The notes beneath the pieces are model-generated. The model was not told the origin of the DNA. It did no database searches and worked only from the letters and a program-made list of their open reading frames with translations. A program made the position numbers and the translations under genes. A DNA stretch of 64,000 bases. Origin: Candidatus Omnitrophota bacterium (GTDB taxonomy: Bacteria > Omnitrophota > Gorgyraeia > Zapsychrales > Fredricksoniimonadaceae). The stretch lies in assembly GCA_903944345.1 (NCBI GenBank), contig CAJARJ010000001.1, forward strand, positions 12,339 through 76,338. Direction: 5' to 3'. Positions 8,063 to 43,115 of this stretch are shown one piece after another; position 1 is the stretch's first letter, and each line of letters starts with the position of its first letter.

Positions 8063-8185
8063 GACCTCATCCCACCTTCTATTAACCCAAATCACTAATA
8101 ATTATTTGATAAACATATAAAATATAACAAACTATATCCTGTATTATGTACTTTGGCAAGGATCGAGGAAACCCCGAATCCGAAT

Positions 8186-10573
8186 TCAGGGCCGCCCGTT
8201 TGGGAATTCGCCAAAAAACTCGGCGGCATCCAGAACTCGTATAGACCCAATAACCGGAACAAAACCAGCCGAACCTTCTGCCTGTACTGATAGCCCAGTC
8301 GAATAAAGAATATTTGCTCCTGTTTTGGAATCAGACTTATCCGAATCCATTACAACCTCCGTCAGATCAATCCCGCCTTTCGCCGCTTCAGAACTATCCC
8401 GGGCCGTCAAAGAATAACCTGTCGTCAGCAAAGAAAAAGCGGGAGCATTGCTATTGATGTTCAAAAGCAATCCGCCCGTCGCTCCCCAATACTGCGAGAC
8501 TGACACTCCCGTCGTCGGGATTATCCCGGCAGAACTTACGGGCGGATGAACATCCGGTGAAGAAAGTGTCAAGGCTGCGGGAACCTTTCCGGAAAACTGC
8601 CAGAAACTTGTCTCCTTCAGCACCTTGAGCGTCCGTATCGCAAAATGAAAAGACGATGAATTATTGATTGCCACGTCTCCCGCGGGAACAAGAACTCTCA
8701 AATTTGAACCGTATCTCTGCCGAGCGTTTTCCAGCCGGCCTGGACGGATTGAAGAAATGAGCTGCGACTGTTCGTTAGCCCCTGCGTCCAGCAGAATCGA
8801 CGGCAGGTTTAACAACCTCTTTTGGTGCTCCCGAGCTTCATCCAAGGAAATATCTGTCTCCAGATTGGAAAGATTAATCCATTTCAGAATTGTGCCCTTA
8901 AGACGCAACAGGACTGCAATCTGCTTCATAGCCGCGACATTCAAGATGTCAACATGCGCCACAATCACCCTATCCGAAGCGATAAGCGTCTTGAGGGCCC
9001 GGAATTGTTGCTCGTCTATTGCCCACAGCAAAGGAGTCCTCCCTCTGTAACGATACCCATCCTTAATGTAGGATTCAAAGCCGCCATCGCCAAACCTGAC
9101 TGGATCTGCCTCCACGAGCACTTTGCGAACAGCCGCAAGCAACCCGCCAAAATCCTCGGAGTGCTCCACCAAACGTAAAAGTTCAAAAGTCACGCGAGCC
9201 ACCTTGCTGTCAATATCAAGAATGACTATCAGGTCTGCCTCTCTTTCCAGCGCAATATCTATATTGTGAAACGAGCCTATGCCCAGATAGCCTCCGCCTT
9301 TCTCCCCAAAGCCATCAAGCCCTGCCAATAAATAATTAATATCCTCGTTCGACATCATCCATCCCTCCGAGCGGATGCTGATACCGGAATCAATCCACCT
9401 GACTCCTGGCTGCATGGCCATATCCACCTCAAGAAGAACGCCTTCTGCAGCCACCAAATTCGGCACAGAAACAAGATTGGATTCAACTATCTTCATAAGT
9501 GAGCTGACCTGGAAATGGGCTCCGCCAGCGAAATATTTCCGTGATATCAGCCCGGACAAAACATCCTCCTCTTCCCGGACCAACACGCTGACTCCCTGGC
9601 TGAATGTTTTCAGATAACGTTCCCAAATCTTCCGAGCTTCGCCGAAATCACTAATCTGAACCCCCGAAGTTTTGTTACGATCAACGTAGGCCATTGAAAA
9701 AACTGAGTGGCGCATCTTTTTCTTGTACCAGGCAGCCAGAATAAGGGATTGATAAATCTGACGAAGTTGCGAAAAATTCCGGCCCTCGTTGACTTCTTGT
9801 TCCAGAACAGGAATAACGATTTCGCGCAGGACAGATATGGCAATCTCGTTCTCTCTCTGGTCAGGTACCAGCTTATTTCCCTGGTCCGATTTCACACTTA
9901 ACCCTGGTGGGGTCGGCAAAGCGTTGTTCGATGTTGCCAGATAATCCGTCTCCAACTTAACCTTCAGGCGCGAATCCGTGATATAAACTGCGCCGACTTT
10001 AGCATTCTCGTAAACTACAACTTTATCCGGGACAATCCACACCTTGTTGAACGTATTAATAGGGATATCTGTTGTGCCATACCTTTCCTGCGCCAAAGCG
10101 TACACTCTCTGCCAGAATTTCTGACCATTCTCTCCTTGAGGAGATAACAATAACGCTGTGATCTGCTTGAGAACATAGTCCTGCGCCAGAAGGTCTCGAC
10201 CCATTTCGGTCTGCCCGAAAGCTTCGGGGATGATACGGTCTTTTTCATACGGCGAAAGGTTGACCCATAAGTCTTTCTCTGGAATGGTCAAGCTGGCCAG
10301 AAAATATTTGACCAATTTTTCGGATTCTTTTTTCAGGAGACCCTGCTCCCTGATTGACTGCAGAGTTTGCTCCCCAGGATCCAAAATAAAGTCAAATCTG
10401 AGCGGATCGTTAGGATAAACTTTAAGTCCTTTAAGGACAGGAGGATTAAACGCTGCACTCAAGGGCAACATCTGCCCCGAATCTGATGACGGAAACTGAG
10501 CCGAAACCGGACTTTCAATCTGAACAATAAAAACAGAAAGAAAAACCGAAGACAGGAATTTACGTATAAGCAT
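8186..10573 (-). CDS. Secreted protein, paralog 2 of the same family (795 aa), in tandem with paralog 1
   Basis: Signal peptide MLIRKFLSSVFLSVFIVQIESPVSA; conserved N-terminal domain and C-terminal GGIDL tail. Confidence 0.8.
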   Translation of the reverse strand: MLIRKFLSSVFLSVFIVQIESPVSAQFPSSDSGQMLPLSAAFNPPVLKGLKVYPNDPLRFDFILDPGEQTLQSIREQGLLKKESEKLVKYFLASLTIPEKDLWVNLSPYEKDRIIPEAFGQTEMGRDLLAQDYVLKQITALLLSPQGENGQKFWQRVYALAQERYGTTDIPINTFNKVWIVPDKVVVYENAKVGAVYITDSRLKVKLETDYLATSNNALPTPPGLSVKSDQGNKLVPDQRENEIAISVLREIVIPVLEQEVNEGRNFSQLRQIYQSLILAAWYKKKMRHSVFSMAYVDRNKTSGVQISDFGEARKIWERYLKTFSQGVSVLVREEEDVLSGLISRKYFAGGAHFQVSSLMKIVESNLVSVPNLVAAEGVLLEVDMAMQPGVRWIDSGISIRSEGWMMSNEDINYLLAGLDGFGEKGGGYLGIGSFHNIDIALEREADLIVILDIDSKVARVTFELLRLVEHSEDFGGLLAAVRKVLVEADPVRFGDGGFESYIKDGYRYRGRTPLLWAIDEQQFRALKTLIASDRVIVAHVDILNVAAMKQIAVLLRLKGTILKWINLSNLETDISLDEAREHQKRLLNLPSILLDAGANEQSQLISSIRPGRLENARQRYGSNLRVLVPAGDVAINNSSSFHFAIRTLKVLKETSFWQFSGKVPAALTLSSPDVHPPVSSAGIIPTTGVSVSQYWGATGGLLLNINSNAPAFSLLTTGYSLTARDSSEAAKGGIDLTEVVMDSDKSDSKTGANILYSTGLSVQAEGSAGFVPVIGSIRVLDAAEFFGEFPNGRP

Positions 10574-20654: not shown

Positions 20655-23600
20655 TCACCTCTGACCATCAAAGAAAACAGCACCCCCCTGACTGGGACGA
20701 ATAGCTGCGATCTCAGGAAAAAAACCGCGACAGGACTGATACTCTTTCCACAAATCCGATCCGGAATAAAACCCTTTCCAGTCGTCCGTTCCCTGAATTT
20801 CAAGAAGATCTTCTGTTGAATTCAAATCAATACCACCAGGGGCCTCTGCTGCGTCTTCCCCTGAATCAGACATCTCTCGAATCAGGACTTGTCCGGAAGC
20901 ATCAAATTCGAACTCAAGTTTTATTGATCCATAAGAATACAATTGTCTTGTCCCGGCCTTGTACGGCCCCCTTTCATCTCCTCCCTGCCGTTGAAAAAAG
21001 AAATCGTCCCCGGATCGTCGCAACAAAAAAACAAAAGAACCGACGGGCCCCTGTTTCCTGGAGTCCCTCTCCATAGGCACCAAAGCACGCGCCTTACCAC
21101 GATAGAAAACATCCCCTGTCACAGGATCTTCGACTCTGAACCCCTCATTTCTGGAGAACGTAAAGCGCAGGCCAAGAGCCTCAAACCCTTTTTGAACGGC
21201 ATAATAAGAATTCTGTGACATCCCCGGAACACCATCAGGATAGAAAATGGGCCTTAAAGCATCCGCAATCTGAGGAGCAACGGATTGCATGCGTAAAAAA
21301 AGAAACTGCAAATCAAGACTCGGGATTTCGCCGACAAGTTCTTCGCTCATCCAGAAACCATCCGCCACCTTTGTCCCGGTAAGATTATCGTCTCTATAAT
21401 AATCACGCACAATCCTGGCGACTGCATCTATAGCCTTTTCCTGCTCGTCGGACGAGCGAAAAGATGTAAAATATATATTTATCGAATCGTGACGATTCTC
21501 CGGCGAACTGCCCGCCCCCAAAGACGGTCGACCTGATTTGTAATTCCCCTGAATCAACGGACCGGAACCGTCCTGGTCGATAAACAAACGATCCAGAGCC
21601 TGAATGCTTTGCGGATTGACCATAATATTCAGTTTCATACGACCACGCAGCGGCCCCTGGATATTATGACCACCACGAAAGACCCAACCCCCTTGCTCTG
21701 TAACCTCTATGCCCGAGGCAGAAGCCCGCAAAGCCGCCTCAAACTCAACCTCGTTCGATGCCCCGTAAGTTCTTGCTGGAGCATAAGAAGCCTCTGTAAG
21801 ATACATATAATAATCCCTTACAATCTGAAATAATACATCCCCCCATTTCTGCGGAAATCGCGTCAATTGATCAATTCTTTTTTGTTTCACGATATCTGGA
21901 TCAAGCTGCAAGCGTCGATAAACCTTATCAAATTGATCAAAAGAACTGATAAGTTGTTTCGCGCGACTCCTGTCCAGTGGCGAAGCAACAGGCATAGCGC
22001 CATCCCAATACTGTTGAAAGTCTTTTTCTTCAGTATCAAAATAATCCGATAGCGCCCTGTACACGGGCTTGTATAAAGTCGTATCGTAAAATTTTACAAG
22101 CTGGGTAGGAAACGATTGATCATCAGGTATCTTGTGGTCAAAAGTTGTCAGACTCTCTGCCCGATAAAAACTCTCTTCCCCTTGATCAAGCACTCCCCCG
22201 ATCGAATCAAAGATATGCATCTGCTCTGCACCCAGAACTTCATCCAGAGTCACCATCTTTTGGCCATATAATAATTCCACCTCAACCCTGCCAACAAACG
22301 ACTGCAAAAGACTCTCTGCCTCAGTGGTCACAAAAGGAGCCGCAACAATAAAACGGGGTCTTTCTCCTTTTGCGTTCTCCTCAAACCAGGCGTTAACCTG
22401 ATCAATGGTTCTTTTAATCTGCTGGCCTCCATACAAAGCATCGTCAAAAATTACAAAATCCCTGATCCCTGCATTGAACATTTTCCTCAACGCCCCGGTT
22501 CGGCTCTCAGATGCTCCCTGAAAGTATGATGCCATCTGAGGGGTTGTCTGCAAATCCTCTTCCACTAGCGAATAAACCCACCGGCGTGACTTGTGCTTGT
22601 CGAAATCCCACAAAACAGCATATGGCCTCTCTTTGTACGCATGCCGGAGATCATTAAACCTTGACACAAGCCTGTCCAGCTCACTCTTAAACTCGGGGAA
22701 AGAAATATGCCGCAGATTTTCAGCTATCTTTTTCTTAATTTCCCGTATTGACGAATCAGGCTCATTCTTCCACCAAGCCTCAAGCTCCTCTGTTTTCAGT
22801 CTTGGGACAAAGTCCGGTGACTGAAACAAATCAGATTTTAATCCCGGCCCCGTCCCCTTAATAACAGAGACCTCCAGGCCATCATCAACCGGATGAAGTA
22901 TTATCTCGACAAACATATCGCGCCCTGAAACATCTCCGAAGACAACCGGCGGATTTCTAAAGAGAATCGATCCCTGGGAAAAGTCCATATTCATTCCCCC
23001 GGAGAAATACTTTCTCGGGATCACTTCATCCGAATAAACATCCTTCTCTTCCCGGATCAGGTTATAGGCCCCCTGGCGAAATGATTCCGCATACCGCTGC
23101 CAGATTTTTTCCGCTTCCTTCGGATCGTCAATATTGACACCCGCTGTTTTGTTGCGGTTCACATACACCTCCGACAACAACGACTGCCAGATTTTCTTCT
23201 TGTACCATGTTGCCAAAATCAGGGACTGATAAACCTGACGCAGCCGGGCAAAGCCCTCCCCCTCATTGACCTCTTTCTCCAGTGCAGGAACGACCACCTC
23301 ACGCAGGACAGCGCGAGCTATGTCCGATCCAGCGGATACCGTCCGATCCGCTCCAAGTCCGCCTCCTGCCGCCAGATAATCCTGCTCCAGCATAACCTTC
23401 AGGCGTGACTCCGCAATGTACACCGCTCCGGCTCCGGCATTGCCGTACACCACCGCCTTGTCAGGCACAATCCACACCTTGTTGAACGTATCTATCGGAA
23501 TATCCGTAGTACCGTATTTCTCCTGTGCCAGGGCGTAGACTTTCCGCCAGAACCTCTTGCCTGTTTCCCCTTCCGGGTGCAATAACGAAGACGTGAGCTG

Positions 23601-23990
23601 TTTAAGAATATAATCCTGCTCCAGAAGATCCCGGCCCATTTCAGTCTGGCCAAACGCTTCGGGAATAATGCGGTCTTTCTCGTAAGGAGACAGGTTGACC
23701 CACAGGTCTTTTTCGGGAACAGTCAGGCTGGCGAGGAAATACCGGACGAGCTTTTCGGATTCTTTCTTGAGATCCGGTTCTGATCGCGTCCCCGGATCAA
23801 GAATGAAATCAAAGCGAAGAGGTTCTTTCGGATATACCTTAAGTCCTTTCAGCACAGCAGGTTGAAACCCTGCTCCGGAGACAGCCATCCCTCCGGCAGA
23901 AGGCAGAACGGGCTGGGATTGCCCCCAGGACAACTGCTCCAGAAAAAAGACCACCGCAAACAGAACAGACAAAACTTTCCTTATAACCAT
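20655..23990 (-). CDS. Secreted protein, paralog 3 of the three-member family (1111 aa)
   Basis: Signal peptide MVIRKVLSVLFAVVFFLEQLSWG; conserved N-terminal domain with the WVNLSPYEKDRIIPEAFGQTEMGRDLL stretch (identical to paralog 2 except one residue); C-terminal GGIDL tail. Confidence 0.8.
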   Translation of the reverse strand: MVIRKVLSVLFAVVFFLEQLSWGQSQPVLPSAGGMAVSGAGFQPAVLKGLKVYPKEPLRFDFILDPGTRSEPDLKKESEKLVRYFLASLTVPEKDLWVNLSPYEKDRIIPEAFGQTEMGRDLLEQDYILKQLTSSLLHPEGETGKRFWRKVYALAQEKYGTTDIPIDTFNKVWIVPDKAVVYGNAGAGAVYIAESRLKVMLEQDYLAAGGGLGADRTVSAGSDIARAVLREVVVPALEKEVNEGEGFARLRQVYQSLILATWYKKKIWQSLLSEVYVNRNKTAGVNIDDPKEAEKIWQRYAESFRQGAYNLIREEKDVYSDEVIPRKYFSGGMNMDFSQGSILFRNPPVVFGDVSGRDMFVEIILHPVDDGLEVSVIKGTGPGLKSDLFQSPDFVPRLKTEELEAWWKNEPDSSIREIKKKIAENLRHISFPEFKSELDRLVSRFNDLRHAYKERPYAVLWDFDKHKSRRWVYSLVEEDLQTTPQMASYFQGASESRTGALRKMFNAGIRDFVIFDDALYGGQQIKRTIDQVNAWFEENAKGERPRFIVAAPFVTTEAESLLQSFVGRVEVELLYGQKMVTLDEVLGAEQMHIFDSIGGVLDQGEESFYRAESLTTFDHKIPDDQSFPTQLVKFYDTTLYKPVYRALSDYFDTEEKDFQQYWDGAMPVASPLDRSRAKQLISSFDQFDKVYRRLQLDPDIVKQKRIDQLTRFPQKWGDVLFQIVRDYYMYLTEASYAPARTYGASNEVEFEAALRASASGIEVTEQGGWVFRGGHNIQGPLRGRMKLNIMVNPQSIQALDRLFIDQDGSGPLIQGNYKSGRPSLGAGSSPENRHDSINIYFTSFRSSDEQEKAIDAVARIVRDYYRDDNLTGTKVADGFWMSEELVGEIPSLDLQFLFLRMQSVAPQIADALRPIFYPDGVPGMSQNSYYAVQKGFEALGLRFTFSRNEGFRVEDPVTGDVFYRGKARALVPMERDSRKQGPVGSFVFLLRRSGDDFFFQRQGGDERGPYKAGTRQLYSYGSIKLEFEFDASGQVLIREMSDSGEDAAEAPGGIDLNSTEDLLEIQGTDDWKGFYSGSDLWKEYQSCRGFFPEIAAIRPSQGGAVFFDGQR

Positions 23991-24051: not shown

Positions 24052-25962
24052 TCAGGATGAACTATCAAGAAGAGTTTCCCAGCGCTGATACGCTTCGGCA
24101 AGCTCGAAACCCAAAGCAGACGAACGCTCTTTAACCCGGGCAATTTCATCAGAAGGTTTTTTGTAGAACTCGGGGTCTGAAAGCCGCGCGCATAACTCCG
24201 CCTGCTCGCGTTCAAAGGTTTCAATCCTCGCCGGAAGCTTTTCCAGCTCGCGCTGTTCACGGTAAGAAAGCTTGGCACCCGTCACCGGCTTTTGAGCTGC
24301 GACACTCTTGATTGCAGGCGGGTTACCCGCAATGCTTTCTGGCCCTTTTTCTCCACCCGGAAAGATCGAAGCCCGCTGGGCCAGCTGATCATCGTATCCC
24401 CCCGGATACTCATTGACCGCGCCGCCCTCTTCCATAACAATCGTTGAGGTCACCACGTTGTTGATAAATTCGCGGTCATGACTGACCAGAATCAGCGTTC
24501 CGGGATATTCCAGCAAAAGCTCTTCGAGCAGTTCCAGCGTTTCCATGTCCAGATCGTTGGTCGGCTCGTCCAGCACCAAAAGATTGGCCGGACGGGTGAA
24601 CAAACGCGCCAGCAGGAGGCGGGCTCTCTCTCCACCGGAAAGAACCTTGACCGGCGTACGCGCCCGGTCTGGAGTAAAAAGAAAATCCTGCAGATAACCA
24701 ATAATATGCCTCGGCTTGCCGTTGATCAGCACCGTATCCGACTGACCGGCCACATTCTCCATCACGGTTTTTTCCTCGTCGAGCTGTTCGCGCATCTGGT
24801 CAAAATACGCCGGAATAAGAGCTGTTCCGTGACGAACGGTTCCCTTTGCCGGTTCCATCTGACCCAAAAGAATCCTGAGCAGAGTACTTTTTCCGCAACC
24901 GTTAGGGCCGATGACGCCAATACGATCTCCGCGCATGATATTGGTTGAAAAATCCCGGATAAGAACCTTGTCGCCCCAGGAATGCCCCAGACGCGAAAGC
25001 TTGGCCACCAGATGCCCGGAGATATCGGTCTCCTGCAAACGGAAACGCACTTGTCCCGGATCCTGCCTGAGTGCAGATTTCTCCTGCCGCAGCGTTTCCA
25101 GCGCCTTGACCCTGCCCTCATTGCGGCAGCGGCGGGCCTCAACCCCACGCCGGATCCAGACTTCCTCGCTGGAAAGCTTCTTTTCAAATTTCTCCAGACG
25201 GGCAGCTTCAATATTGGCCTCGACCTTCCGGTGCTCCAGAAAGGTTCGGTAATCGCAAGTCCAGCTGTAAATCCGCCCGCGATCCAGTTCAACAATCCGG
25301 CTGGCGGTCTCGGCCATAAAACGCCGGTCATGCGTTACAAAAAAAACTGTTCCGGCGAAATTTCTTATAAATCCTTCCAACCAGATAATAGAATCAATGT
25401 CCAGATGATTGGTCGGCTCATCCAGCAGCAGCAAATCGGGCGCCGAAACCAGTGCCCGCGCCAACAAGGCCCGGCGTCTGGCTCCGCCGGAAAGCTGCTC
25501 AAACCGGTCACGGGGAGAAAGCTTCATGCACGCGATAGCCTGCTCGACCTGATGATCAGTCTGCCAGCTGGCGGTGCGATCCAGTTCCGCCTGCAAACGG
25601 GAAAGCTCCTGCAACAGCTGCGGCGAAGCGCTTTTTTCAAGCAGATGGGTGACGTGATGATAATCACTCAGAAGCCGGCCCCGCTCGCCCAGGCCGGAAG
25701 CCACCACGTCAAAAACTTCTCCCTCGATGTCGCGCGGGACATCCTGCGGAACAAACGCTGTCCGCAACCCCTTCTGCCGGCTAACTCGACCATCGTCGGG
25801 GTTCATCTCCCCGGCCATCAGTCGCAGCAAGGTGGTCTTGCCGGTTCCGTTACGTCCCAAAAGAGCCGTACGTTCACCTGGCTCGAGATTAAAGCTGATC
25901 CGGTCAAACAGTAACGGTCCGCCGAAAGCCAAAGAGACATCCTGAAAGGTGACAAGCGCCAT
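24052..25962 (-). CDS. ABC-F family ATPase with two ABC domains and a C-terminal coiled-coil/DNA-binding-type extension (Uup-like)
   Basis: Two Walker A (GRNGTGKTT; GPNGCGKST) and two LSGGE signature motifs, 636 aa, no TM domain. Confidence 0.9.
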   Translation of the reverse strand: MALVTFQDVSLAFGGPLLFDRISFNLEPGERTALLGRNGTGKTTLLRLMAGEMNPDDGRVSRQKGLRTAFVPQDVPRDIEGEVFDVVASGLGERGRLLSDYHHVTHLLEKSASPQLLQELSRLQAELDRTASWQTDHQVEQAIACMKLSPRDRFEQLSGGARRRALLARALVSAPDLLLLDEPTNHLDIDSIIWLEGFIRNFAGTVFFVTHDRRFMAETASRIVELDRGRIYSWTCDYRTFLEHRKVEANIEAARLEKFEKKLSSEEVWIRRGVEARRCRNEGRVKALETLRQEKSALRQDPGQVRFRLQETDISGHLVAKLSRLGHSWGDKVLIRDFSTNIMRGDRIGVIGPNGCGKSTLLRILLGQMEPAKGTVRHGTALIPAYFDQMREQLDEEKTVMENVAGQSDTVLINGKPRHIIGYLQDFLFTPDRARTPVKVLSGGERARLLLARLFTRPANLLVLDEPTNDLDMETLELLEELLLEYPGTLILVSHDREFINNVVTSTIVMEEGGAVNEYPGGYDDQLAQRASIFPGGEKGPESIAGNPPAIKSVAAQKPVTGAKLSYREQRELEKLPARIETFEREQAELCARLSDPEFYKKPSDEIARVKERSSALGFELAEAYQRWETLLDSSS

Positions 25963-25965
25963 AAA

Positions 25966-26973
25966 CTACATAACCTTCCCGACAGCCTCAAGCAGTTCGC
26001 GATTGGTGGGATACTTCTGCATCTGTTCCAGAAGGACACTGGCCGCTTCCACAGGACTAAGCTGAACCAGCGCGCGGCGCAACAGATTGACGCGATCAAG
26101 TTCCTGGGGTTCAAGCAGCAATTCGATACGTCGGGTGCCACTCTTGGCCACATCAATAGCCGGATAAATCCTGCGGCTGGATACATCTCTGGAAAGAACA
26201 ACTTCCATGTTGCCCGTTCCCTTGAATTCCTCAAATATCACATCGTCCATACGGCTTCCTGTCTGCACAAGAATTGTAGCCAGAATGGTAAGCGACCCGC
26301 CATGCTCAATCTTGCGGGCAGCTCCGAAAATGCGTCGGGGAACTTCCAGTGCACGGGCATCAAGTCCTCCCGAGATGGTTCTTCCGCTAGAACGCCGCTC
26401 GGCATTATGTACCCTTGCCAGCCGGGTCAAGGAATCAATAAGAACCATAACATGCTGCCCTGCTCCGGCCTCGCGCATGGCCTGGCGCATAAGATCGTCA
26501 GCCGTGCGGACGTGATGCTCGTATTCCAGATCTGACGACGACCAGCGCACATCCGCGGTGACACTGCGGCGAAAATCGGTAACCTCCTCCGGGCGCTCAT
26601 CAATCAGAAGACAATACAGCTTGACCTGAGGATAAGCCCGTCCGACAGCCTGACAAATATGTTTGAGAATCGTGGTTTTGCCGGAACCGGGAGGCGCAAC
26701 TATCAGTCCGCGCTGCCCCATGCCGATTGGACAAATCAAATCCAGACCGCGCATGGTCGGATCCGCCAACCCGTCTTCCAAGCGCATCCGTGGACTGGGA
26801 TCAACCGGAATGCCTTCAAGAAACAGTCGATCAGCAGGATCCTGGGACGGCCGGGATGAAAACGCCGCCCGCGCAGGTGCCTGAACACGCGGATAATGCC
26901 GCGCGGCCGAATGCGGACGGGCATGTTGCCGCCCTCCCCGCCCTGATTTTCCATGATCATAAGGTTTTTTCAT
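25966..26973 (-). CDS. rho: Transcription termination factor Rho, apparently lacking the N-terminal primary RNA-binding (OB-fold) domain
   Basis: Co-linear with E. coli Rho from about residue 130 to the C-terminus (PIGMGQRGLIVAPPGSGKTT, LIDERPEEVT, DSLTRLARVHN, GGSLTILAT, EFKGTGNMEVVL); only 46 Arg-rich residues precede it; a stop lies 12 codons upstream of the ATG and the ATG overlaps the ygiQ stop. Confidence 0.8.
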   Translation of the reverse strand: MKKPYDHGKSGRGGRQHARPHSAARHYPRVQAPARAAFSSRPSQDPADRLFLEGIPVDPSPRMRLEDGLADPTMRGLDLICPIGMGQRGLIVAPPGSGKTTILKHICQAVGRAYPQVKLYCLLIDERPEEVTDFRRSVTADVRWSSSDLEYEHHVRTADDLMRQAMREAGAGQHVMVLIDSLTRLARVHNAERRSSGRTISGGLDARALEVPRRIFGAARKIEHGGSLTILATILVQTGSRMDDVIFEEFKGTGNMEVVLSRDVSSRRIYPAIDVAKSGTRRIELLLEPQELDRVNLLRRALVQLSPVEAASVLLEQMQKYPTNRELLEAVGKVM

Positions 26974-28766
26974 CGTCCCGGCCTCCGCATTTTCGCAACT
27001 TTCTGTTTAGCTGGTTCACGTCCAATAATCCGCATGGCCTTTTGCACCAACGAGGCGCTGCCAGCGTTCTGCGGCTGAAAAAGAGCCCGCTGCATATCTC
27101 TTTCCAACGGCTCTTTGGGCACATAAATCTTCTCGCCAGTAAAAGGATGCCGGCCGGTATGATACATGCATCCGGCCACCGTCATAGGCAACGGAATGAA
27201 ATCCTGAACCTGCTCCGGACGCATATGCCGCACAGCCAGTGCATCCGCACAAGCCACGGCCTCATTGAGTCCGCAACCGGGATGCGCACTGATAAAATAG
27301 TTCACCAGATATTTCCGGCTCTTCAACCCGCGATTGATCCGCTCAAACCTGCGCACAAATTCCTCATAGGCCGAATAGGGCGGCTTGTTCATCAGACGCA
27401 ACACAGGGTCACTGGCATGTTCGGGAGCAACCTTCAACTGCCCGCTAACATGATATTCACACAATTCCCGAAAATAAGTCTCAGCCTCGGGACGCATCAG
27501 CAGGTCGTAACGCAGACCGCTGGCGACAAAAACGTGTTTCACCCCGGGAAGCCGACGCAGGGCCCGATAAAGAGAAAGGGCTTTTGCATAGCCTGTTTCC
27601 AGGGATGGACATTTTTCCGGCATGAGACACTGCCGTTTTGCGCAAGGGCCGCTCTTGTCCCAAAGACGACAGTCCGCGCCATAAAGATTTGCCGTGGGGC
27701 CTCCGACATCACTAATTGTCCCGCGGAAAGCGGGATCTTTTGTCAGCCGCCTGGCCTCTTCAACAAGTGAACGTTCGCTGCGACTCTGAATGATCCGCCC
27801 CTGATGCATGGCCAGACCGCAAAAACTGCACTCACCACTACAGCCGCGCACCGCGGTCAATGACCAGCGTACTGTTTCCAGCCCCCGCACTCCACCAAAC
27901 TGATCATAATACGGATGCCAGTTACGCACATACGGCAATTCATAACTGGCATCCAGCTCTGCCGTAGTCAACGGACGTGCCGGTGGCAACTGCATCACAA
28001 CCCGGTCAGCATGCCGCTGGATCAAGGCCACTCCAGCCCCGGAAGTCATATGCCGGTACGCCAGAGTAAAGGCTGCGTTAAAAGCCACTTGATCCGAACT
28101 AACTTGCTCGAAGGAGGGCAATTCCTGAACTTCCGGCAACGCCCCTGTGTTCCTGACAAATACAACTGTACCGCGAACATCCTGAATGTCGGCAATACTC
28201 TCCCCGCGGTCAAGGCGGGAAACAACTTCGACCAAGGACAACTCGGCCATCCCGTAAACGATCATATCCGCCTTGGCGTCAACTAACAGCGAACGCCGTA
28301 CGGCATTATCCCAATAATCGTAATGTGCCAGGCGGCGCAAACTGGCTTCTATACCTCCCAAGATCACTGGAAGGCCTTTGAAGCAAGCACGTAACCGGCT
28401 GGTGTACACTATAGAAGCGCGGTCAGGCCGCCCGTCCGACATCCCAGAAGCCCCGTAAGCATCGTCCCGGCGCAGGCGCTTGTTGGCCGTATAATTGGCC
28501 ACCATGGAATCTACATTGCCGCCACTGACCAGCGCACACAAACGGGGACAGCCAAGACGCGAGAAATCCTTGTTGGAACGCCAATCCGGACGGGCAATAA
28601 TTCCCACCCGATAACCACGGCTCTCCAGTAATCGCCCGATCAGGGCCATACCATAGGAAGGGTGATCAACATACGCGTCTCCCGAAACCAGCAGCACATC
28701 CAGACCATCCCAGCCCCGGCGCGCCACTTCTTCGGGAAACATCGGCAAAAACGAAAAACCGGCCAT
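26970..28766 (-). CDS. ygiQ: YgiQ (UPF0313) family radical SAM protein
   Basis: N-terminal B12-binding-like domain, CSGECSFC radical SAM motif, 598 aa, Lys/Arg-rich C-terminus. Confidence 0.8.
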   Translation of the reverse strand: MAGFSFLPMFPEEVARRGWDGLDVLLVSGDAYVDHPSYGMALIGRLLESRGYRVGIIARPDWRSNKDFSRLGCPRLCALVSGGNVDSMVANYTANKRLRRDDAYGASGMSDGRPDRASIVYTSRLRACFKGLPVILGGIEASLRRLAHYDYWDNAVRRSLLVDAKADMIVYGMAELSLVEVVSRLDRGESIADIQDVRGTVVFVRNTGALPEVQELPSFEQVSSDQVAFNAAFTLAYRHMTSGAGVALIQRHADRVVMQLPPARPLTTAELDASYELPYVRNWHPYYDQFGGVRGLETVRWSLTAVRGCSGECSFCGLAMHQGRIIQSRSERSLVEEARRLTKDPAFRGTISDVGGPTANLYGADCRLWDKSGPCAKRQCLMPEKCPSLETGYAKALSLYRALRRLPGVKHVFVASGLRYDLLMRPEAETYFRELCEYHVSGQLKVAPEHASDPVLRLMNKPPYSAYEEFVRRFERINRGLKSRKYLVNYFISAHPGCGLNEAVACADALAVRHMRPEQVQDFIPLPMTVAGCMYHTGRHPFTGEKIYVPKEPLERDMQRALFQPQNAGSASLVQKAMRIIGREPAKQKVAKMRRPGR

Positions 28767-30382
28767 CAGTCGTACAAAGCCGCTCTCTGGGCTCTGATCC
28801 GCTCGTCGGCCAGATAATCGTCAAAATTTGTACCCGCCCGGTCAATACATCCCCGGGGACTCAACTCGACAATCCGGTTGGCCACTGTCTGAACCAGCTG
28901 ATGATCATGCGAAGAGAACAAAAGCGTTCCGCGAAACTTTTCCAGTCCGCGATTCAGAGCCGTGATGGATTCCAGATCCAGATGATTGGTAGGCTCATCC
29001 ATGATCAAAACATTTGGCTTAATGAGCATCATACGCGACATCATGCAGCGAACTTTCTCTCCTCCGGAAAGAACCGTCACGGGCTTAAGAGATTCCTCCC
29101 CGGAAAATAACATTCTTCCCAGAAATCCACGAATAAACTGCTCGCTGGTGTCATCGGAATACTGCCGCAACCAGTCAATCACAGTCAAAGGACGAGTGAA
29201 ATAAGCCGTATTATCTTTGGGATAATAGCCTCGTTTTGTGGTCACACCCCATTTGAAGGTCCCCTTATCCGGCTGCAGCTCTCCGGCCAGCACCTGAAAA
29301 AGTGTTGTCCGGGCCAGATCATGAGTCCCTACAAACGCCACCTTGTCACCAGGATGAATATCCAGAGAAAGCCGGTCGAACATAAGCTGCCCGTCCACGG
29401 TCTTGGACAAGCCCTCGATATGCAAAATATCGTTCCCGGCCTCGCGCTCCTGCTCGAACCCGATAAAAGGATACTGACGGGAAGAAGGCTTGATCTCGTC
29501 AACCGTCAACTTTTCCAGCATCTTCTTACGGCTGGTGGCCTGACGGGACTTGGAAAGATTGGAACTAAAGCGGGCGATAAACTCCTGCAACTCCCGACGG
29601 CGTTCCTCAATCTTTTTGTTTGCCTCGCCGCGCTGACGCAAGGCCAGCTGACTGGATTCCGACCAGAAAGAATAATTGCCGGAATAAAGCTGAATCTTGC
29701 CGAAATCAATATCGGCAATATGGGTACAAACATTGTCCAGAAAATGACGATCGTGCGAAACCACAACTGCAGTATTTTCAAAACGACTTAAGAAATCTTC
29801 AAGCCACAGGCAGGTCTCGACGTCCAGATGATTGGTCGGCTCGTCAAGCAGCAAAATATCGGGATTTCCGAACAACGCCTGCGCAAGCAGCACCCGGACT
29901 TTCTGTCCGGATTCCAGTTGCTTCATCGGCAGCTGGTGCAAAGCAACGGGAATGCCAAGATTACACAAAAGCTTGCCAGCGTCTGCCTCGGCATCCCAGC
30001 CATTGAGCTCGGCAAACTCGCTCTCCAGCTCAGAAACGCGCATCCCGTCCTCGTCAGTAAAATTCGGACGGGCATAAATCTCGTCTTTCTCCTGCGTAAC
30101 CGCGTACAAACGCTTGTGGCCCATGATGACTGTGGTCAAAACCATGCAATCATCGAAAGCAAACTGATCCTGTTTAAGAACCGAAAGTCTCTTACCGGAA
30201 GGAACAGAAACAGAACCAGCAGTAGATTCGATCTCTCCCGAAAGGATTTTTAGAAATGTGGACTTTCCGGAACCATTGGCTCCGATCAATCCATAACAAT
30301 TCCCAGGAGAAAAAACAATGCTGACATCGGAGAAAAGTTTTCGCTGGCCGTACTGGAGCGAAACACCATTGACGGTAATCAT
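28766..30382 (-). CDS. ABC-F family ATPase (second paralog, YbiT/EttA-like, 538 aa)
   Basis: Two ABC cassettes (GANGSGKST; LSGGE x2), no TM domain; 1-nt overlap with ygiQ. Confidence 0.9.
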   Translation of the reverse strand: MITVNGVSLQYGQRKLFSDVSIVFSPGNCYGLIGANGSGKSTFLKILSGEIESTAGSVSVPSGKRLSVLKQDQFAFDDCMVLTTVIMGHKRLYAVTQEKDEIYARPNFTDEDGMRVSELESEFAELNGWDAEADAGKLLCNLGIPVALHQLPMKQLESGQKVRVLLAQALFGNPDILLLDEPTNHLDVETCLWLEDFLSRFENTAVVVSHDRHFLDNVCTHIADIDFGKIQLYSGNYSFWSESSQLALRQRGEANKKIEERRRELQEFIARFSSNLSKSRQATSRKKMLEKLTVDEIKPSSRQYPFIGFEQEREAGNDILHIEGLSKTVDGQLMFDRLSLDIHPGDKVAFVGTHDLARTTLFQVLAGELQPDKGTFKWGVTTKRGYYPKDNTAYFTRPLTVIDWLRQYSDDTSEQFIRGFLGRMLFSGEESLKPVTVLSGGEKVRCMMSRMMLIKPNVLIMDEPTNHLDLESITALNRGLEKFRGTLLFSSHDHQLVQTVANRIVELSPRGCIDRAGTNFDDYLADERIRAQRAALYD

Positions 30383-30518: not shown

Positions 30519-30719
30519 TTACAGCTTCACCACGTTCTTGGCCTGCTCGCCCTTGGGGCCCTGAGCAACCTCAAACTCGACCTCCTGACCCTCAAGAAGG
30601 GTCCTTCTGCCTTCGCAGCGGATCTCGCTGTGGTGAACGAAAACATCCTTACCGGATTCAGGGGTAATAAATCCAAACCCTTTTTCGTCATTGAACCATT
30701 TCACTTTACCTTTTGCCAT
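30519..30719 (-). CDS. Cold-shock protein (CspA family, 66 aa)
   Basis: [18 protein letters not shown]...DVFVHHS RNP motifs; strong GGAGG RBS; about 270 nt of upstream non-coding leader. Confidence 0.9.
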
Positions 30720-34109: not shown

Positions 34110-35480
34110 TCACTCAACCGTAAAACTGACTTCGAATTCCGTCAGATCCCGATCCCTGACTTTTTTCTTACGTGTCGAACGTGTCTGGACATCGCGAAAC
34201 CGCTTGATGCCCCCCAGGCTATCAATAAACTGAAACGCTGTAGCCAGCCCGTCCGCCTGGCCGCGCAAAAAAACCTTGCCCTTTTCGTCAAGCGAAACAG
34301 CGGTAATCGCCACCGTATCCGGAATAATGGACTGAACCTCAGACACAATAACCCCGGGGGTCTGCCGGGCATTCAGATTCTTTTTAACAAAATCGGTCTT
34401 GCCCGCCTTGTCGACAACCTCAGAAAGTTCCCGCTCCAGCAGAGCAGTCTTGAACTGGACAGTTTTTAAATGACTTTCCCGAATATATACCTGTGACCAG
34501 TAAAAACCTCCGACCAGAACCAGCAGATAGCAAAACAGGCCGGAAAAGAAAACCAGATCCGCCGTATCCTTGCGCAGGGTCTTGCGAATCTGAATCTCCG
34601 GAAGCAAAAGCGTAGCCTCGGCCGAACCCTCACCGCCAAGGACAGCCATGCTGCTCACGGAAACATCGGATCCAACCCCCTTGGCAGACGACTCCACTGT
34701 AACCGGAACATCAAATTCGTCTTTAAGTTTCTGCTCCAGCAAGCCTGCCGCCTTGGCCCCACAAAGCACAATACCGGCAATCTTCTGGTTCATTTCCTCG
34801 TTATGAAACATGACCAAAGACTGCTTGACCTCGCCGATAAATTTAAGCGACGCCGACTCGAAATCGGAAATAAGGCTTCTGGCCCCGACATTGATGCTTC
34901 GGGAGAACAACAAATTATCTTTCTGCATGATTACACAGTCAGTAAAGCCTGCGTCGATGTCCAGAACCAGCATTAACGCCTCGCTGGCGGGTTGGGAGCG
35001 ATACGCGTTCCAAAGACCGTAACTGGACAAAGTCAGACGCTCAACCAGAAGCCCGGCTTTCTCGACCATAGCCACCTGTCGACGCAGAATGTCTGCCCGC
35101 ACAATAACCACCAGCACACGAGTATAACCGACCTCATCCTTGCCGATAATCCGGTGACCGCTGACCACGTCCTCTTTTTTATAAGGAACCATCCTGACAA
35201 TATTGAGATCCACCATCTGGGCAATTTCGCGCTCGTCTTCGGAAGGAAGGTGCAGATTACGAACAGTTGCGGCATTCCTGGAGATCGACAACGTCACCCG
35301 GCCCGAACGGGAGCGCCAGCGTTTGAGGCAGGAAGCCAGCGCCTGGGCCGAAAGGACATCGTTCTCCTGAACGTCTTCGGCAGCGAACTCTTCGGCACGA
35401 AAGCCTGCTCCGGCAGACTGTGCCTGGGCAACCTTGATATGCTCTCTGGAAATTTGAACAATGTAATTCTGTTTTGCCAT
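34110..35480 (-). CDS. PilM (actin-like ATPase fold)-PilN fusion protein
   Basis: About 330-aa PilM-like cytoplasmic domain, TM helix LVFFSGLFCYLLVLVGGFYW, about 110-aa PilN-like periplasmic domain. Confidence 0.7.
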   Translation of the reverse strand: MAKQNYIVQISREHIKVAQAQSAGAGFRAEEFAAEDVQENDVLSAQALASCLKRWRSRSGRVTLSISRNAATVRNLHLPSEDEREIAQMVDLNIVRMVPYKKEDVVSGHRIIGKDEVGYTRVLVVIVRADILRRQVAMVEKAGLLVERLTLSSYGLWNAYRSQPASEALMLVLDIDAGFTDCVIMQKDNLLFSRSINVGARSLISDFESASLKFIGEVKQSLVMFHNEEMNQKIAGIVLCGAKAAGLLEQKLKDEFDVPVTVESSAKGVGSDVSVSSMAVLGGEGSAEATLLLPEIQIRKTLRKDTADLVFFSGLFCYLLVLVGGFYWSQVYIRESHLKTVQFKTALLERELSEVVDKAGKTDFVKKNLNARQTPGVIVSEVQSIIPDTVAITAVSLDEKGKVFLRGQADGLATAFQFIDSLGGIKRFRDVQTRSTRKKKVRDRDLTEFEVSFTVE

Positions 35481-35484
35481 AAGA

Positions 35485-36705
35485 TCAGCTTACAAACTGG
35501 GTTATCTGGAACGTCGGCAGCAGGATCGAAAGAACAATTCCCCCAAGAACCACGCCGATAACCAGAATCAGTAACGGCTCAAGCAGGGCCGTCACAACAG
35601 CGATATCCGCTTCGATTTGCTGGGAATAGGAGGCCAGAATCTCTTCCAGAACTTCGACCAGCCGACCTGACTCCTCCCCGATTGCAATCATCTTAACAAA
35701 AAAATCCGGTAATTGTGCATAAAGGTTTAAACTTTTTGCGATACCCCCTCCATCCGCAACCGCACGGCAGGCTTTGGTCAAGCCCTCCCGAAGCCGGGGG
35801 TCTTCCATCGTCGGGACAGCCAGCTCGAACGCGGTCAAGGCCGGCACCCCGCTTTTGAGCAAAAGTACCAGTGCCCGCGTAAACTGCACCAGCTGCTGGC
35901 TTGTCATCAGTTGCCGCAAAACAGGAATGCGACGAACAACCTGCCCAAGGGCAAGGGACAGGAACGCTTTCCCCCGGGGATGGAAACAGGCCGCAACCAG
36001 TCCGACCACTCCCAGAAGAACCAGTGGCCAGGAACGATTTAGCAAAGTACTCGTCTGCAAAACAATCCGCGTCGTCAGCGGAAGCTCCCGGCCCAACCCT
36101 TCCAGCAAAGGACGCAGACGCGGTACTACAAAATTCATCAGGACAAACACGCTGAGAAAACCGACACCCCCCAACAACGACGGATACGCCAGAGCGACAC
36201 GAATGCGGCTGCGCATGGCGGCATCGCGGGACATAAAATCGTTAATCTGCTCGAGCGCGGCATCCAGCCGACCACTCGCCTCCCCCGCCCGGATAATATG
36301 CACAAACAAAGCGGAGAAATATTCCGGATAACGCGACAGCGCTTCGGAGAAAGACTTGCCCTCACGCGCCATCGCATGCAGCTGCTGGATGACATCCCGA
36401 AAAACAGGATTCTCGGTCTGCTCGTGAATAATGGCCAGGCCGGAAAGAATTTCCACCCGCGCGCGCGTCAGGGTAGTCATTTTCTTGACGAACAAAAGAA
36501 CATCTGTCTGGGTCACCCGTTTCGGACGAGCCTGACGTGGGCGCGAGGAAGGCATGGCTGCCACGCCGGATTCCGGCGCAATATGAACAGGAAAAAGCCC
36601 GAGGACAGACAGTTTGGAAACAGCATCTGCCTGGCTCTCGGCATCGATGCTGCCCTCGGTTACTTCGGTAAGATTCTTTTTTGCCTTGTAAACAAACCTG
36701 GGCAT
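35485..36705 (-). CDS. gspF: GspF/PilC family inner-membrane platform protein
   Basis: Two T2SF repeats, 406 aa, 3 TM topology. Confidence 0.85.
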   Translation of the reverse strand: MPRFVYKAKKNLTEVTEGSIDAESQADAVSKLSVLGLFPVHIAPESGVAAMPSSRPRQARPKRVTQTDVLLFVKKMTTLTRARVEILSGLAIIHEQTENPVFRDVIQQLHAMAREGKSFSEALSRYPEYFSALFVHIIRAGEASGRLDAALEQINDFMSRDAAMRSRIRVALAYPSLLGGVGFLSVFVLMNFVVPRLRPLLEGLGRELPLTTRIVLQTSTLLNRSWPLVLLGVVGLVAACFHPRGKAFLSLALGQVVRRIPVLRQLMTSQQLVQFTRALVLLLKSGVPALTAFELAVPTMEDPRLREGLTKACRAVADGGGIAKSLNLYAQLPDFFVKMIAIGEESGRLVEVLEEILASYSQQIEADIAVVTALLEPLLILVIGVVLGGIVLSILLPTFQITQFVS

Positions 36706-36710
36706 AAATT

Positions 36711-40659
<3,949 letters not shown>

Positions 40660-40662
40660 AGA

Positions 40663-42162
40663 TCAGGCCGCGGCTTCCTGGCTATTGCGTCTTATATCCC
40701 TGAAAAAGACGGCAAAGGCCTTCTCCACCGCTTCTCCCGTTTCCGGAGCAATATCCTGCGTTTCTTTGATGCGCGTGGTAACAGTCATGTCGTACTCGGT
40801 CAGAAACCGGAAGAAATTATCAATAAAACGGCGCATATGCTGGGGCGAAACCCCCTGCAGGAGATTGCGTTGATAAAGATGAAAAAGCACCATCTGCTCC
40901 TCTAGTGAAACCGGGGCAAAATTGGACTGTTTGAAAAGTTCCTGCAGAACCTCGCCGCGGCGTAAACGCGCGAGCGCTTCTTCGGAAAGATTGGTGCGCA
41001 GTTTGGTCATACGCAGCATTTCGCGATACTGGGAATATTCCAGCCTGAGCCCGGAACTGACACGCCGTATCCCCGGTCCCTGGACGCGGCTGCCGATACG
41101 CGACACCGACAAACCCAGGTCAATGGCAGGCTTGAAACCTTCATGAAACAACGGGGCGCTGATATAAATCTGCCCGTCAGTAATGGAAATAAGGTTCGTC
41201 TGGATATAGCCGGTGATATCCCCCTGCATGGTCTCGACCACAGGCAGAAAAGTCATGGAACCCCCGCCGTGCCCTGATGTCATTCGACCCGCACGCTCCA
41301 AAAGCTGGGAATGCAGATAGAAAATGTCTCCAGGATAGGCTTCGCGTCCGGAAGCTCTCTCCAGCAGCAAGGACATCTGCCGGTACACCCAGGCATGCTT
41401 GGTCAGATCATCAAAAACCACCAGGACATCACGCCCTCTGGACATAAAATATTCACCCAGAGCGGCGGCGGAATAGGGGGCCAGATACTGTTCGGCCGCA
41501 GATACTCCCACAGCGGCCGCCACGATAACTGTGTGCTCGATTGCTCCGCGTTCATTAAGCGAATTGATAATGCGCTGCAAGGCCGCCTGGGGGCCGCCAA
41601 TCCAGCAGTAAATACAAACCACCCCGGTATTCTTCTGGTTGATAATCGCATCAACACAGATCGATGTTTTCCCGGTCTGACGGTCACCAATAATCAGCTC
41701 TCTTTGCCCGCGTCCGACCGGAATGGCCAGATCAATGATCTTGACTCCGGTCGGCATCTGCTGCATAACCGGCTCGCGTTCCATGATCCCCGGAGCCTCG
41801 CGAAAGATGGCCGAACGTCCGCTGACCGTGACCGGCCCGCGCCCGTCGAGCGGATCACCCAGACTGCTGATCACCCGCCCCAGAAAACCTTCACCGACCG
41901 GAATACTGGCCTGTGCCTCGTAAGAAAGAACTTCATCGCCGACCGAAACCCCGTTCTCGTCACCGAAAATCGTGGCCATAACATCTTTTTCATCAAAACC
42001 CATGACCAGACCATGCATACCGGCGGAGAACTGCACCAGCTGGCCATAGGCACAAGTCTGCAGGCCCTTAATACGGGCAATACCGCGGCGGACATCCTTG
42101 ACCCGCCCGATCTCCCGCACATCCAGCAGGGGAACCTTGTATTGTTCCTGTATCTGTGTCAT
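40663..42162 (-). CDS. atpA: F1Fo ATP synthase alpha subunit
   Basis: GDRQTGKTSICVDAIINQ P-loop and overall co-linearity with F1 alpha. Confidence 0.95.
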   Translation of the reverse strand: MTQIQEQYKVPLLDVREIGRVKDVRRGIARIKGLQTCAYGQLVQFSAGMHGLVMGFDEKDVMATIFGDENGVSVGDEVLSYEAQASIPVGEGFLGRVISSLGDPLDGRGPVTVSGRSAIFREAPGIMEREPVMQQMPTGVKIIDLAIPVGRGQRELIIGDRQTGKTSICVDAIINQKNTGVVCIYCWIGGPQAALQRIINSLNERGAIEHTVIVAAAVGVSAAEQYLAPYSAAALGEYFMSRGRDVLVVFDDLTKHAWVYRQMSLLLERASGREAYPGDIFYLHSQLLERAGRMTSGHGGGSMTFLPVVETMQGDITGYIQTNLISITDGQIYISAPLFHEGFKPAIDLGLSVSRIGSRVQGPGIRRVSSGLRLEYSQYREMLRMTKLRTNLSEEALARLRRGEVLQELFKQSNFAPVSLEEQMVLFHLYQRNLLQGVSPQHMRRFIDNFFRFLTEYDMTVTTRIKETQDIAPETGEAVEKAFAVFFRDIRRNSQEAAA

Positions 42163-42169
42163 AGAAGTC

Positions 42170-42886
42170 TTATTTCTTCATTAACTCTGCCGCTTTTTCC
42201 AGACGACCGCGCAAACTACCGTCCATAAGCAGAGTCGAGGCACGCACCACCATGCCGCAGATAAGAGCACTGTCCTGCTCAAATTTAAGTATCGGCGGGC
42301 GCCCCATCTTACCTTCAAGCACCGCAGTGAGGTCGCTGACCCGGAAATCCTGCAAAGGATAAGCGGTAACAACGGCTATTTCGGTCATGACCGAAACCAG
42401 GGAATCCGCCGGCATAACAACAATTTCGGAAAAAAGTTCGTCGATCATTTCTTCGTGCAGGGCCCGCATGGCGCGCGAACTGAAAACCATCCTCGTCATT
42501 TGCAAACCAAAGTCCGCCGCCATAATCCTGTGGGCGGTCATAAGCTGGCGTTCCTTTTTAGCAAACTCCTCGGATTTGCGGGCCGCTTCCTGGGCAAATT
42601 TCTCTTTCATGGAAGCCGTCATTTCGCTGATCAGGCGTGCCGCCTGCTCGCGAGCTTCCTGAATAATCCGTTCGGCTTCCTCGTTGGCGCGGCGAAAAGC
42701 ATCCTCCTGCTCAAGCCGGGCCTTGACCGCCATCTCTCCCAACTCTGTTTCACGGGCAAGGTTGCGCTCATGCAAAACCTTGAGCCGGCCAAGTGCCCCG
42801 TCCAGCTGTTTCTGAAACAACTGACGCAGGAAAAGAAAAAGCAAAAAAAGCGCAACAATCTGAATAATCAGCAATTGAAGGAACAT
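42170..42886 (-). CDS. atpFH: ATP synthase b subunit fused to a truncated delta (OSCP C-terminal domain only)
   Basis: N-terminal TM plus long charged coiled coil (b-like); C-terminal ...ICGMVVRASTLLMDGSLRGRLEKAAELM matches the delta C-terminal motif; total 238 aa, so the delta N-terminal domain is absent. Confidence 0.65.
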   Translation of the reverse strand: MFLQLLIIQIVALFLLFLFLRQLFQKQLDGALGRLKVLHERNLARETELGEMAVKARLEQEDAFRRANEEAERIIQEAREQAARLISEMTASMKEKFAQEAARKSEEFAKKERQLMTAHRIMAADFGLQMTRMVFSSRAMRALHEEMIDELFSEIVVMPADSLVSVMTEIAVVTAYPLQDFRVSDLTAVLEGKMGRPPILKFEQDSALICGMVVRASTLLMDGSLRGRLEKAAELMKK

Positions 42887-42893
42887 AGGCCTC

Positions 42894-43103
42894 TCACTTG
42901 AAAAGCAGGTAGACCATCAATAAGGACATGACCGCAACCGCTTCGGCAAAAATAAAAGCCATGATCATCGCCATCAAAATCCGGGGCGAAGCAGAAGGAT
43001 TGCGTCCTACCGCAGAAACAGCGCCGTAACCAACGACTCCGATAACAGCAGCCGGCCCCAACGTACTTAACACCACAACCATGACAATGGTAATTTCTTT
43101 CAT
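42894..43103 (-). CDS. atpE: ATP synthase c subunit (proteolipid), H+-type
   Basis: Two-TM hairpin with the conserved carboxylate in IFAEAVAV; no Ser/Thr next to Glu, so not the Na+ motif. Confidence 0.9.
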   Translation of the reverse strand: MKEITIVMVVVLSTLGPAAVIGVVGYGAVSAVGRNPSASPRILMAMIMAFIFAEAVAVMSLLMVYLLFK

Positions 43104-43115
43104 ACTGCTCCCGGA

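Follow-up and report, generated by a model that had tools for sequence, protein, structure and literature searches.

To our knowledge, every mechanistic model of Rho, the transcription termination factor, begins with the capture of RNA at the OB-fold primary binding site, and the question arises what a Rho protein without such a site could be. A protein of this kind is encoded in a 64,000-nucleotide stretch of contig CAJARJ010000001.1 (assembly GCA_903944345.1, labelled as a Candidatus Omnitrophota bacterium), the whole of which is referred to here as the window. From our point of view, the question has three parts, namely (i) whether the gene is a genuine, functional one; (ii) to which family of proteins it belongs; and (iii) whether it represents the Rho of its host or a second one. 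Judged by its sequence, the open reading frame (ORF) is a member of a distinct clade of Rho-family ATPases that lack the N-terminal primary RNA-binding domain. On balance, we favour the view that its product is a functional Rho-family motor without the N-terminal domain (NTD), which most likely acts as an accessory second Rho beside a canonical rho gene and not as the housekeeping terminator.

The rho gene of the window and its domain content

The gene and its parts are the following:

25966..26973, minus strand: coding sequence of the NTD-less Rho-family ATPase, 335 amino acids plus stop
26839..26973, minus strand: codons 1-45, basic tail with many R, H, P and G residues, predicted to be disordered, which stands in for the Rho_N and OB-fold domains
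25966..26838, minus strand: codons 46-335, connector plus RecA-type Rho C-terminal domain
26982..26986, minus strand: GGAGG Shine-Dalgarno sequence, 8 nt 5' of the rho ATG and within the 3' end of ygiQ

An earlier note on this DNA, made without database searches, had claimed that the protein aligns with Escherichia coli Rho only from about residue 130 onward and lacks the whole NTD, and both claims hold. In a tblastn search of the window with E. coli Rho, residues 132-414 alone aligned (46% identity) to 26826..25987, and the E. coli NTD on its own found nothing better than E=2.8 anywhere in the window. Weaker Rho-like matches at ~38.7-41.7 kb are explained by the F1Fo ATP synthase genes that are located there. 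The only Pfam domain of the protein is ATP-synt_ab; neither Rho_N (PF07498), the helix bundle, nor Rho_RNA_bind (PF07497), the OB-fold primary RNA-binding domain, matched it, and the solved Rho structures in the PDB match solely through their C-terminal domain. Compared with canonical Rho (E. coli; TIGR00767/NF006886), the protein hence shares the C-terminal RecA-type ATPase (47% identity over residues 131-415) but lacks residues 1-130, that is, the Rho_N bundle and the OB fold, and carries a disordered basic tail of ~45 amino acids instead.

The same picture is obtained with family models. NF006886 (Rho) aligns through its profile positions 131-412 only, and with 371 bits the protein lies above the cut-off of 315 for this model (the best FliI model reached ~77 bits), whereas its 355 bits for TIGR00767 stay below the cut-off of 509. 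It is because the NF006886 cut-off is passed that PGAP names such proteins "transcription termination factor Rho", and, as a practical point of annotation, this name hides the absence of the NTD.

In an AlphaFold2 monomer model built on 48 homologues, the predicted confidence (pLDDT) is below 50 for residues 1-42, a stretch thus predicted as disordered, and from about residue 45 onward a RecA-type fold is modelled with confidence; the model superposes on the C-terminal domain of E. coli Rho with 1.4 A over 285 columns. As the earlier note had also stated, the ATPase and the two loops of the secondary RNA site are conserved. Across an alignment of 121 sequences, the positions that correspond to K184, T185, E211, R212, D265, R269, R353 and R366 do not vary, so that the Walker A/P-loop (PPGSGKTT), Walker B, the catalytic Glu, the Arg valve and the Arg finger R366 are all kept. 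The Q-loop and the R-loop are present with conservative changes (K283R and T286S in the former, K326R in the latter), and G282, G287, G288, T323, G324 and S325 are invariant in these 121 sequences. The equivalent of K181 is Gly in every one of the 121 members checked, and three residues are deleted at the equivalent of E. coli 151-153. Conserved motifs and the predicted fold together suggest that the motor domain is probably intact.

One could suspect that the short protein is merely a truncated rho remnant that results from misassembly, a frameshift or decay, and its unusual length, taken alone, speaks for this. A frameshift or assembly error near 26.97 kb had been raised earlier; it is refuted by the finding that the identical protein is present on at least 12 independent contigs (ENA, Logan, JGI and NCBI) with the same order of an ABC-F ATPase gene (abcF), ygiQ, rho and uup, which excludes an artefact of assembly. 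Upstream, there is indeed no room for a missing domain, as an in-frame stop lies 12 codons 5' of the rho ATG and the ATG overlaps the ygiQ stop codon as ATGA; the start is further marked by the Shine-Dalgarno sequence and by translational coupling to ygiQ. Using a 93%-identical relative (locus L190) as reference, the ratio of nonsynonymous to synonymous substitution rates (dN/dS) came to 0.039 in the rho core and 0.197 in its tail; the corresponding ratios of ygiQ and uup were 0.082 and 0.085. It follows that core and tail alike are translated and subject to selection. With all motifs intact and more than 200 sequences of the same architecture, we give the artefact or pseudogene reading practically no credence.

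A family of tail-bearing Rho proteins

The best 120 database matches of the protein are 283-357 amino acids long and 65-100% identical to it, contain PF00006 only and all lack PF07497; most of the named members among them are Candidatus Omnitrophica/Omnitrophota. A further 80 loci were found in JGI metagenomes with clade-specific peptides, and the open frame was short in all 80. For several matches whose annotated N-termini are very short, the frame in fact extends further upstream and encodes a basic tail, for example at locus L006. In a profile search of 1.84 billion representative proteins, a few representatives of the clade scored 400-486 bits, followed by a gap down to ~387 bits, at or below which every other Rho was found. 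When the C-terminal domains were placed in a neighbour-joining tree, the NTD-less forms clustered together and separately from every canonical Rho, those of Omnitrophota included, with the reservation that the tree was built on uncorrected distances, for which long branches can mislead.

What unites the tails is their composition and not their sequence. In 120 homologues, a median of 40 residues precedes the equivalent of F133, with 20% R, 15% P, 10% S, 9% H and less than 3% I+L+V, a net charge of about +7 and a pI of about 12; the first 50 residues of the window protein hold 8 R, 3 K, 4 H and 3 D/E. The claim of an Arg-rich N-terminus holds, the tail being a feature that the family conserves in its composition, and with a dN/dS of 0.20 the tail is subject to purifying selection. 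Many tails have MRNF or MKNF at their start and an acidic D-E-A-E motif at their end. Two branches can be told apart, the first with R/H/P-rich tails in metagenome-assembled genomes labelled Omnitrophota, and a second one mostly from marine samples with a conserved N-terminus, MTRK(T/I)LSLK(G/V)KR, followed by an acidic stretch. Genes of the second branch are often convergent with a DEAD-box helicase gene. Its loci are:

L159-L187: marine subgroup, marine and TARA metagenome loci
L196, 8001..8960: marine subgroup

The profile search also returned other proteins that combine a basic tail with a Rho C-terminal domain (P0265, P0269, P0287 and P0392). P0392 has a G/Q/H-rich tail of ~95 amino acids and a degenerate P-loop, PPKAMQDD instead of PPxxGKT, and may be an inactive derivative.

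A comparison with short or otherwise unusual Rho proteins described so far shows likenesses as well as differences. Rho proteins of group B (D'Heygere et al., 2013) and of Type 4/subtype 2d (Moreira et al., 2024; PMC11347177) are, as the relevant passages describe them, likewise shorter and less conserved with intact catalytic residues. In group B/Type 4 proteins, however, the Rho_N bundle alone is missing and the OB-fold domain is still present, whereas the window protein lacks both and is hence not a member. It fits only the uncharacterised single-domain 'Rho-like' bin as outlined in that survey (Moreira et al., 2024; PMC11347177), since the ATPase domain alone is detected. The short form NF041509 ('paralog_Rho2', 360 positions) aligns with the window protein at positions 70-359, but the score of 311 bits against a cut-off of 628 excludes membership, and the model has ~70 positions ahead of the ATPase as opposed to ~45 disordered residues here. 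Marine members and representatives of the clade scored 289-330 bits with NF041509, and other short Rho-like sequences that were tested at most 514 bits. By these scores and alignments, the window protein, a tail-bearing Rho paralog without the NTD, stays below the cut-offs of TIGR00767 and NF041509 and is outside group B/Type 4. A literature search found no paper that links Omnitrophota with Rho or with termination factors.

Arg-rich disordered segments next to the RNA-binding face are described for the Rho proteins of Mycobacterium tuberculosis and Bacteroides as well, where, in the portions of the two reports that deal with them, they raise RNA affinity or shape the selection of rut sites (PMC11347177; PMC13650167). 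As depicted there, the disordered region is added to an intact NTD, while in the window protein it replaces this domain.

A phage or defence origin of the family was considered and rejected: the protein matches no PHROGs family, no copy is present in 50,697 phage records, and PADLOC gave a trivial P-loop match only.

Second Rho or sole Rho of the host

The earlier note tacitly took the protein to be the Rho of its lineage, equipped with an unusual Arg-rich tail. The tail is real, but the premise is doubtful, because canonical Rho is abundant in the phylum and because the clade is also found on a phage-plasmid of Spartinivicinus ruber. The comparison with Rho proteins from the same phylum that had been suggested yielded common full-length canonical Rho proteins of 415-448 amino acids plus the distinct short family described above (283-357 amino acids, best 120). 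At least three Omnitrophota-labelled GTDB genomes carry a full-length Rho of 418-451 amino acids among the matches listed, and a query with one such protein returned 120 clusters (415-448 amino acids, 85-100% identical), each with Rho_N, Rho_RNA_bind and the ATPase; the named clusters are nearly all Omnitrophica/Omnitrophota. The complete 1.82 Mb genome CP070807.1, also labelled Omnitrophota, carries canonical Rho, and at every locus inspected the canonical gene lies in the order polA-glgA-coaE-rho-(rpmE)-prfA-prmC-aroA(-trp):

L086-L102, L192-L195, L042, L066, L082 and L096: canonical rho loci, conserved polA-to-aroA block

The two kinds of Rho also differ in how strongly they are conserved. 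Between lineages, canonical Rho is 73-88% identical where PrfA is 49-61% and PolA 41-49% identical, and it retains 62-67% identity to E. coli Rho. NTD-less Rho, by comparison, is 75-83% identical between lineages where PtsI is 83-85% and the ABC-F protein 78-84% identical. By these alignments, NTD-less Rho is a protein that evolves only about as slowly as its neighbours and much faster than canonical Rho. Its C-terminal domain is 47% identical to E. coli residues 131-415 and 46-56% to the same domain of canonical Omnitrophota Rho; the short gene hence did not arise by recent truncation of the canonical one found locally.

Outside Omnitrophota, one member of the family is encoded on plasmid pB of the cultured gammaproteobacterium S. 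ruber. The protein has 319 amino acids, with MTKKILRLKVKR at its start, and shares 75% identity with the marine subgroup and 66% with the window protein. Its gene is located between holin genes and small regulatory genes (AbrB, HEPN, XRE), and terminase, portal and capsid genes adjoin it, from which it follows that pB is a phage-plasmid; the phage genes of pB are absent from the other 89 short-rho loci. Since the survey of Moreira et al. (2024; PMC11347177), in the part that covers Pseudomonadota, lists no species without a functional Rho, the NTD-less gene of S. ruber is very likely a second copy. At one marine locus, a neighbouring gene product is 44% identical to E. coli RsuA, which fits a proteobacterial host for that locus. 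Members of the short family from Gammaproteobacteria and from Omnitrophota-labelled genomes share 66% identity, and this value across phyla, together with 75-83% among close relatives whose PtsI is 83-85% identical, fits horizontal spread of an accessory gene.

Several lines of evidence hence argue for an accessory status, namely (i) that canonical Rho is abundant, conserved and syntenic in Omnitrophota-labelled genomes; (ii) that NTD-less Rho is hardly slower in its evolution than the proteins encoded next to it; (iii) that a family member resides on the S. ruber phage-plasmid, in a phylum with functional Rho throughout as far as the aforementioned part of the survey extends; (iv) that the survey counts, as given in its summary figures, leave no clear case of an ATPase-only Rho on its own; and (v) that a pair of rho genes is common among PVC-group genomes. 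Regarding (iv), 2446 of the 2730 complete genomes surveyed have a Rho-ATPase domain and 284 lack a functional Rho (Moreira et al., 2024; PMC11347177), and as 2446 equals 2730 minus 284, no such case is to be expected from these figures. Regarding (v), the same source reports 30 PVC-group genomes that have two rho genes (Moreira et al., 2024; PMC11347177). From the data on the phylum, on S. ruber and from the survey, we consider it quite probable that a canonical rho gene is located elsewhere in the genome of the window organism.

A number of observations weigh against this reading. The searches for co-existence covered the 64 kb window and the flanks of 89 loci. There is no canonical rho in the window and no Rho NTD within +-10 kb of the short rho gene at 9 genome and 80 metagenome loci (~0.95 Mb in total); a comparison of the contig lists of short and canonical Rho revealed no contig with both types, the two sets fall into separate NCBI accession series, and, as a weak indication, the 7 GTDB species with the short gene have no canonical Rho among the matches listed. 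Two contigs that appeared to hold both types were chance matches, the one of 1757 bp being too small for both genes and the one of 16579 bp being a different contig. The very low dN/dS of the core would equally fit an essential single-copy gene. Moreover, the short-bearing lineage, which includes GCA_022711115.1 (RA.bin19), is deeply diverged from the canonical-carrying genome CP070807.1 (PtsI 47-51% identical, four loci compared), and this divergence leaves room for a replacement of canonical Rho there. HPr-ptsI lies near canonical rho in CP070807.1 and ~9 kb upstream of short rho in RA.bin19-type contigs, and a synteny walk from ptsI met no canonical rho within 10 kb on either side in three large contigs. 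The canonical clusters P0138, P0156, P0160 and P0136 stem from samples other than that of the window organism.

Based on these observations, one could imagine that canonical rho was lost in this Omnitrophota lineage and that the short protein is its sole Rho, in which case termination would proceed without an OB-fold primary site and without YC/rut recognition. Transcripts would then be captured by the Arg/His/Pro-rich disordered tail together with NusG, with a CspA-type protein possibly aiding in trans. In favour of this, purifying selection on the core is very strong, its dN/dS being only about half the value obtained for the genes next to it, the operon is a stable one of housekeeping type with no sign of a mobile element, no canonical rho was found near it or on any matched contig, nor among the matches listed for the 7 short-gene GTDB species, and basic disordered regions do enhance RNA binding in the Bacteroides and Mycobacterium proteins, as the passages cited above put it (PMC11347177; PMC13650167). 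However, the negative searches each covered less than a genome, four Omnitrophota-labelled lineages that are deeply diverged have all retained canonical Rho, highly conserved and in synteny, and the NTD-less clade is not derived from Omnitrophota canonical Rho (46-56% identity; separate neighbour-joining clade). It further occurs on a gammaproteobacterial phage-plasmid, in a phylum for which the survey's listing contains no Rho-less member, and its totals show no clear ATPase-only Rho on its own among 2730 complete genomes (PMC11347177). Taken together, we regard it as unlikely, at roughly one chance in five, that canonical rho was lost and that the short protein acts alone. Should it nevertheless prove to be the only Rho that its host has, a termination that dispenses with rut recognition would be truly surprising.

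The occurrence on a phage-plasmid also brings to mind a role as modulator, in which NTD-less subunits would co-assemble with full-length Rho by way of the conserved interfaces of the C-terminal domain, lower the number of primary sites per ring and thereby tune or poison termination; such anti-termination could be useful to a mobile element. One member is indeed phage-plasmid cargo beside lysis and regulatory genes, the ring-forming domain is complete, and hetero-hexamers are put forward as possible for species that carry a pair of rho genes in the paragraph of Moreira et al. that deals with them (PMC11347177). On the other hand, strong selection maintains all catalytic, Q-loop and R-loop residues, although a subunit acting as a passive poison could do without them, and 46-56% identity to the canonical C-terminal domain does not assure compatible interfaces. 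As the family has no PHROGs match and no copy in the phage records, and as the window gene is chromosomal and part of a housekeeping operon, such a modulator role appears improbable to us.

For the accessory motor that we favour, the conserved motifs and the predicted fold point to a Rho-like hexamer that would hydrolyse ATP and pull RNA in 5'->3' direction through a central channel lined with the Q- and R-loops. The YC-specific cleft of the OB fold would not be usable for RNA capture, and the protein would hence be without pyrimidine-dinucleotide specificity. Instead, six basic disordered tails (about +7 each), in the position of the NTD, would most likely capture RNA in a non-specific manner, and partner proteins may help in this. 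As such, a family with a full motor but a disordered basic tail constitutes a natural experiment on the need for the primary site, and, if it is an accessory factor, it would point to an unstudied class of Rho-type RNA translocases that is linked to cold-shock, ABC-F and DEAD-box genes and was carried at least once by a phage-plasmid.

Gene neighbourhood and further features of the window

The genes around rho in the window are the following:

26970..28766, minus strand: ygiQ, radical SAM protein (TIGR03904, 791 bits)
28766..30382, minus strand: ABC-F ATPase gene, 538 amino acids, leading the tightly packed run abcF-ygiQ-rho-uup
24052..25962, minus strand: uup, ABC-F ATPase (NF050005, 780 bits, under the 900-bit cut-off of the model); its start lies 3 nt past the rho stop codon
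19072..20310, minus strand: DEAD-box RNA helicase gene, three genes downstream of rho on the same strand
30519..30719, minus strand: cspA-type cold-shock (OB-fold) gene, 66 amino acids

Among the 89 loci, an ABC-F gene is adjacent to NTD-less rho in 19, a DEAD-box helicase gene is its neighbour in 8 and an RsuA gene in 5. A csp gene is found within 10 kb on the same strand at 8 of the 89 loci compared with none of 80 control loci, where the 8 loci stand for no more than about 5 independent lineages. From one lineage to another, csp, abcF, rho and uup are arranged in differing order. As an association, the csp/ABC-F/DEAD-box neighbourhood, variable but with a common theme, points to RNA remodelling or to surveillance coupled with translation and not to rut-directed termination.

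The primary binding site of Rho is a cold-shock-like OB fold. One could therefore speculate that Rho is split in these organisms and that the OB fold is supplied in trans, either by a detached NTD or by the nearby CspA-type protein. The enrichment of csp near rho would be in line with this idea, as would its position directly upstream of rho in locus L109 (csp at 9559..9759; in L110 at 4653..4853) and the fact that the NTD of a canonical Omnitrophota Rho, when searched against the window, gave only a weak match, which was to the csp gene. However, the separately encoded NTD that the earlier note had offered as an alternative was not found, as neither the window nor the +-10 kb around rho at the 89 loci contains a Rho_N or Rho_RNA_bind gene standing by itself. 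The csp gene, moreover, encodes an ordinary CspA of 66 amino acids without any extension, is separated from the abcF-ygiQ-rho-uup operon by a terminator-like hairpin that follows it (30512-30528), and is absent from most loci. We hence consider a split Rho very improbable. A 98-amino-acid ORF with the cold-shock domain had been examined as an extended surrogate for the NTD and was discarded, since the extension results from a spurious GTG start and the gene is the same 66-amino-acid CspA.

In 8 loci of the RA.bin19-type lineage, a small conserved ORF of 77-84 amino acids without Pfam match directly follows NTD-less rho:

L105, L106 and L107, 21490..21723: small ORF after rho
L010, L011 and L151: small ORF after rho, gene +1

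Some further features of the window are given for completeness. Two large ORFs, 20655..23990 (minus strand, 1111 amino acids), which lies directly downstream of uup, and 4898..8095 (minus strand, 1065 amino acids), have no Pfam match at E<=1e-5. The F1Fo ATP synthase cluster mentioned above spans 38387..44167 on the minus strand and contains the beta, gamma, alpha and delta subunits in the order of the window coordinates. Lastly, a giant ORF of 4918 amino acids (44151..58907, minus strand) combines four Laminin_G_3 and four DUF2341 domains with Kelch repeats and a Kre9/KNH Ig-like domain; it adjoins type II secretion/type IV pilus-like genes (secretin at 60763..62511; PilM/N and the type II secretion components E/F at 34110..38390), and its product is probably a giant surface or adhesin protein.

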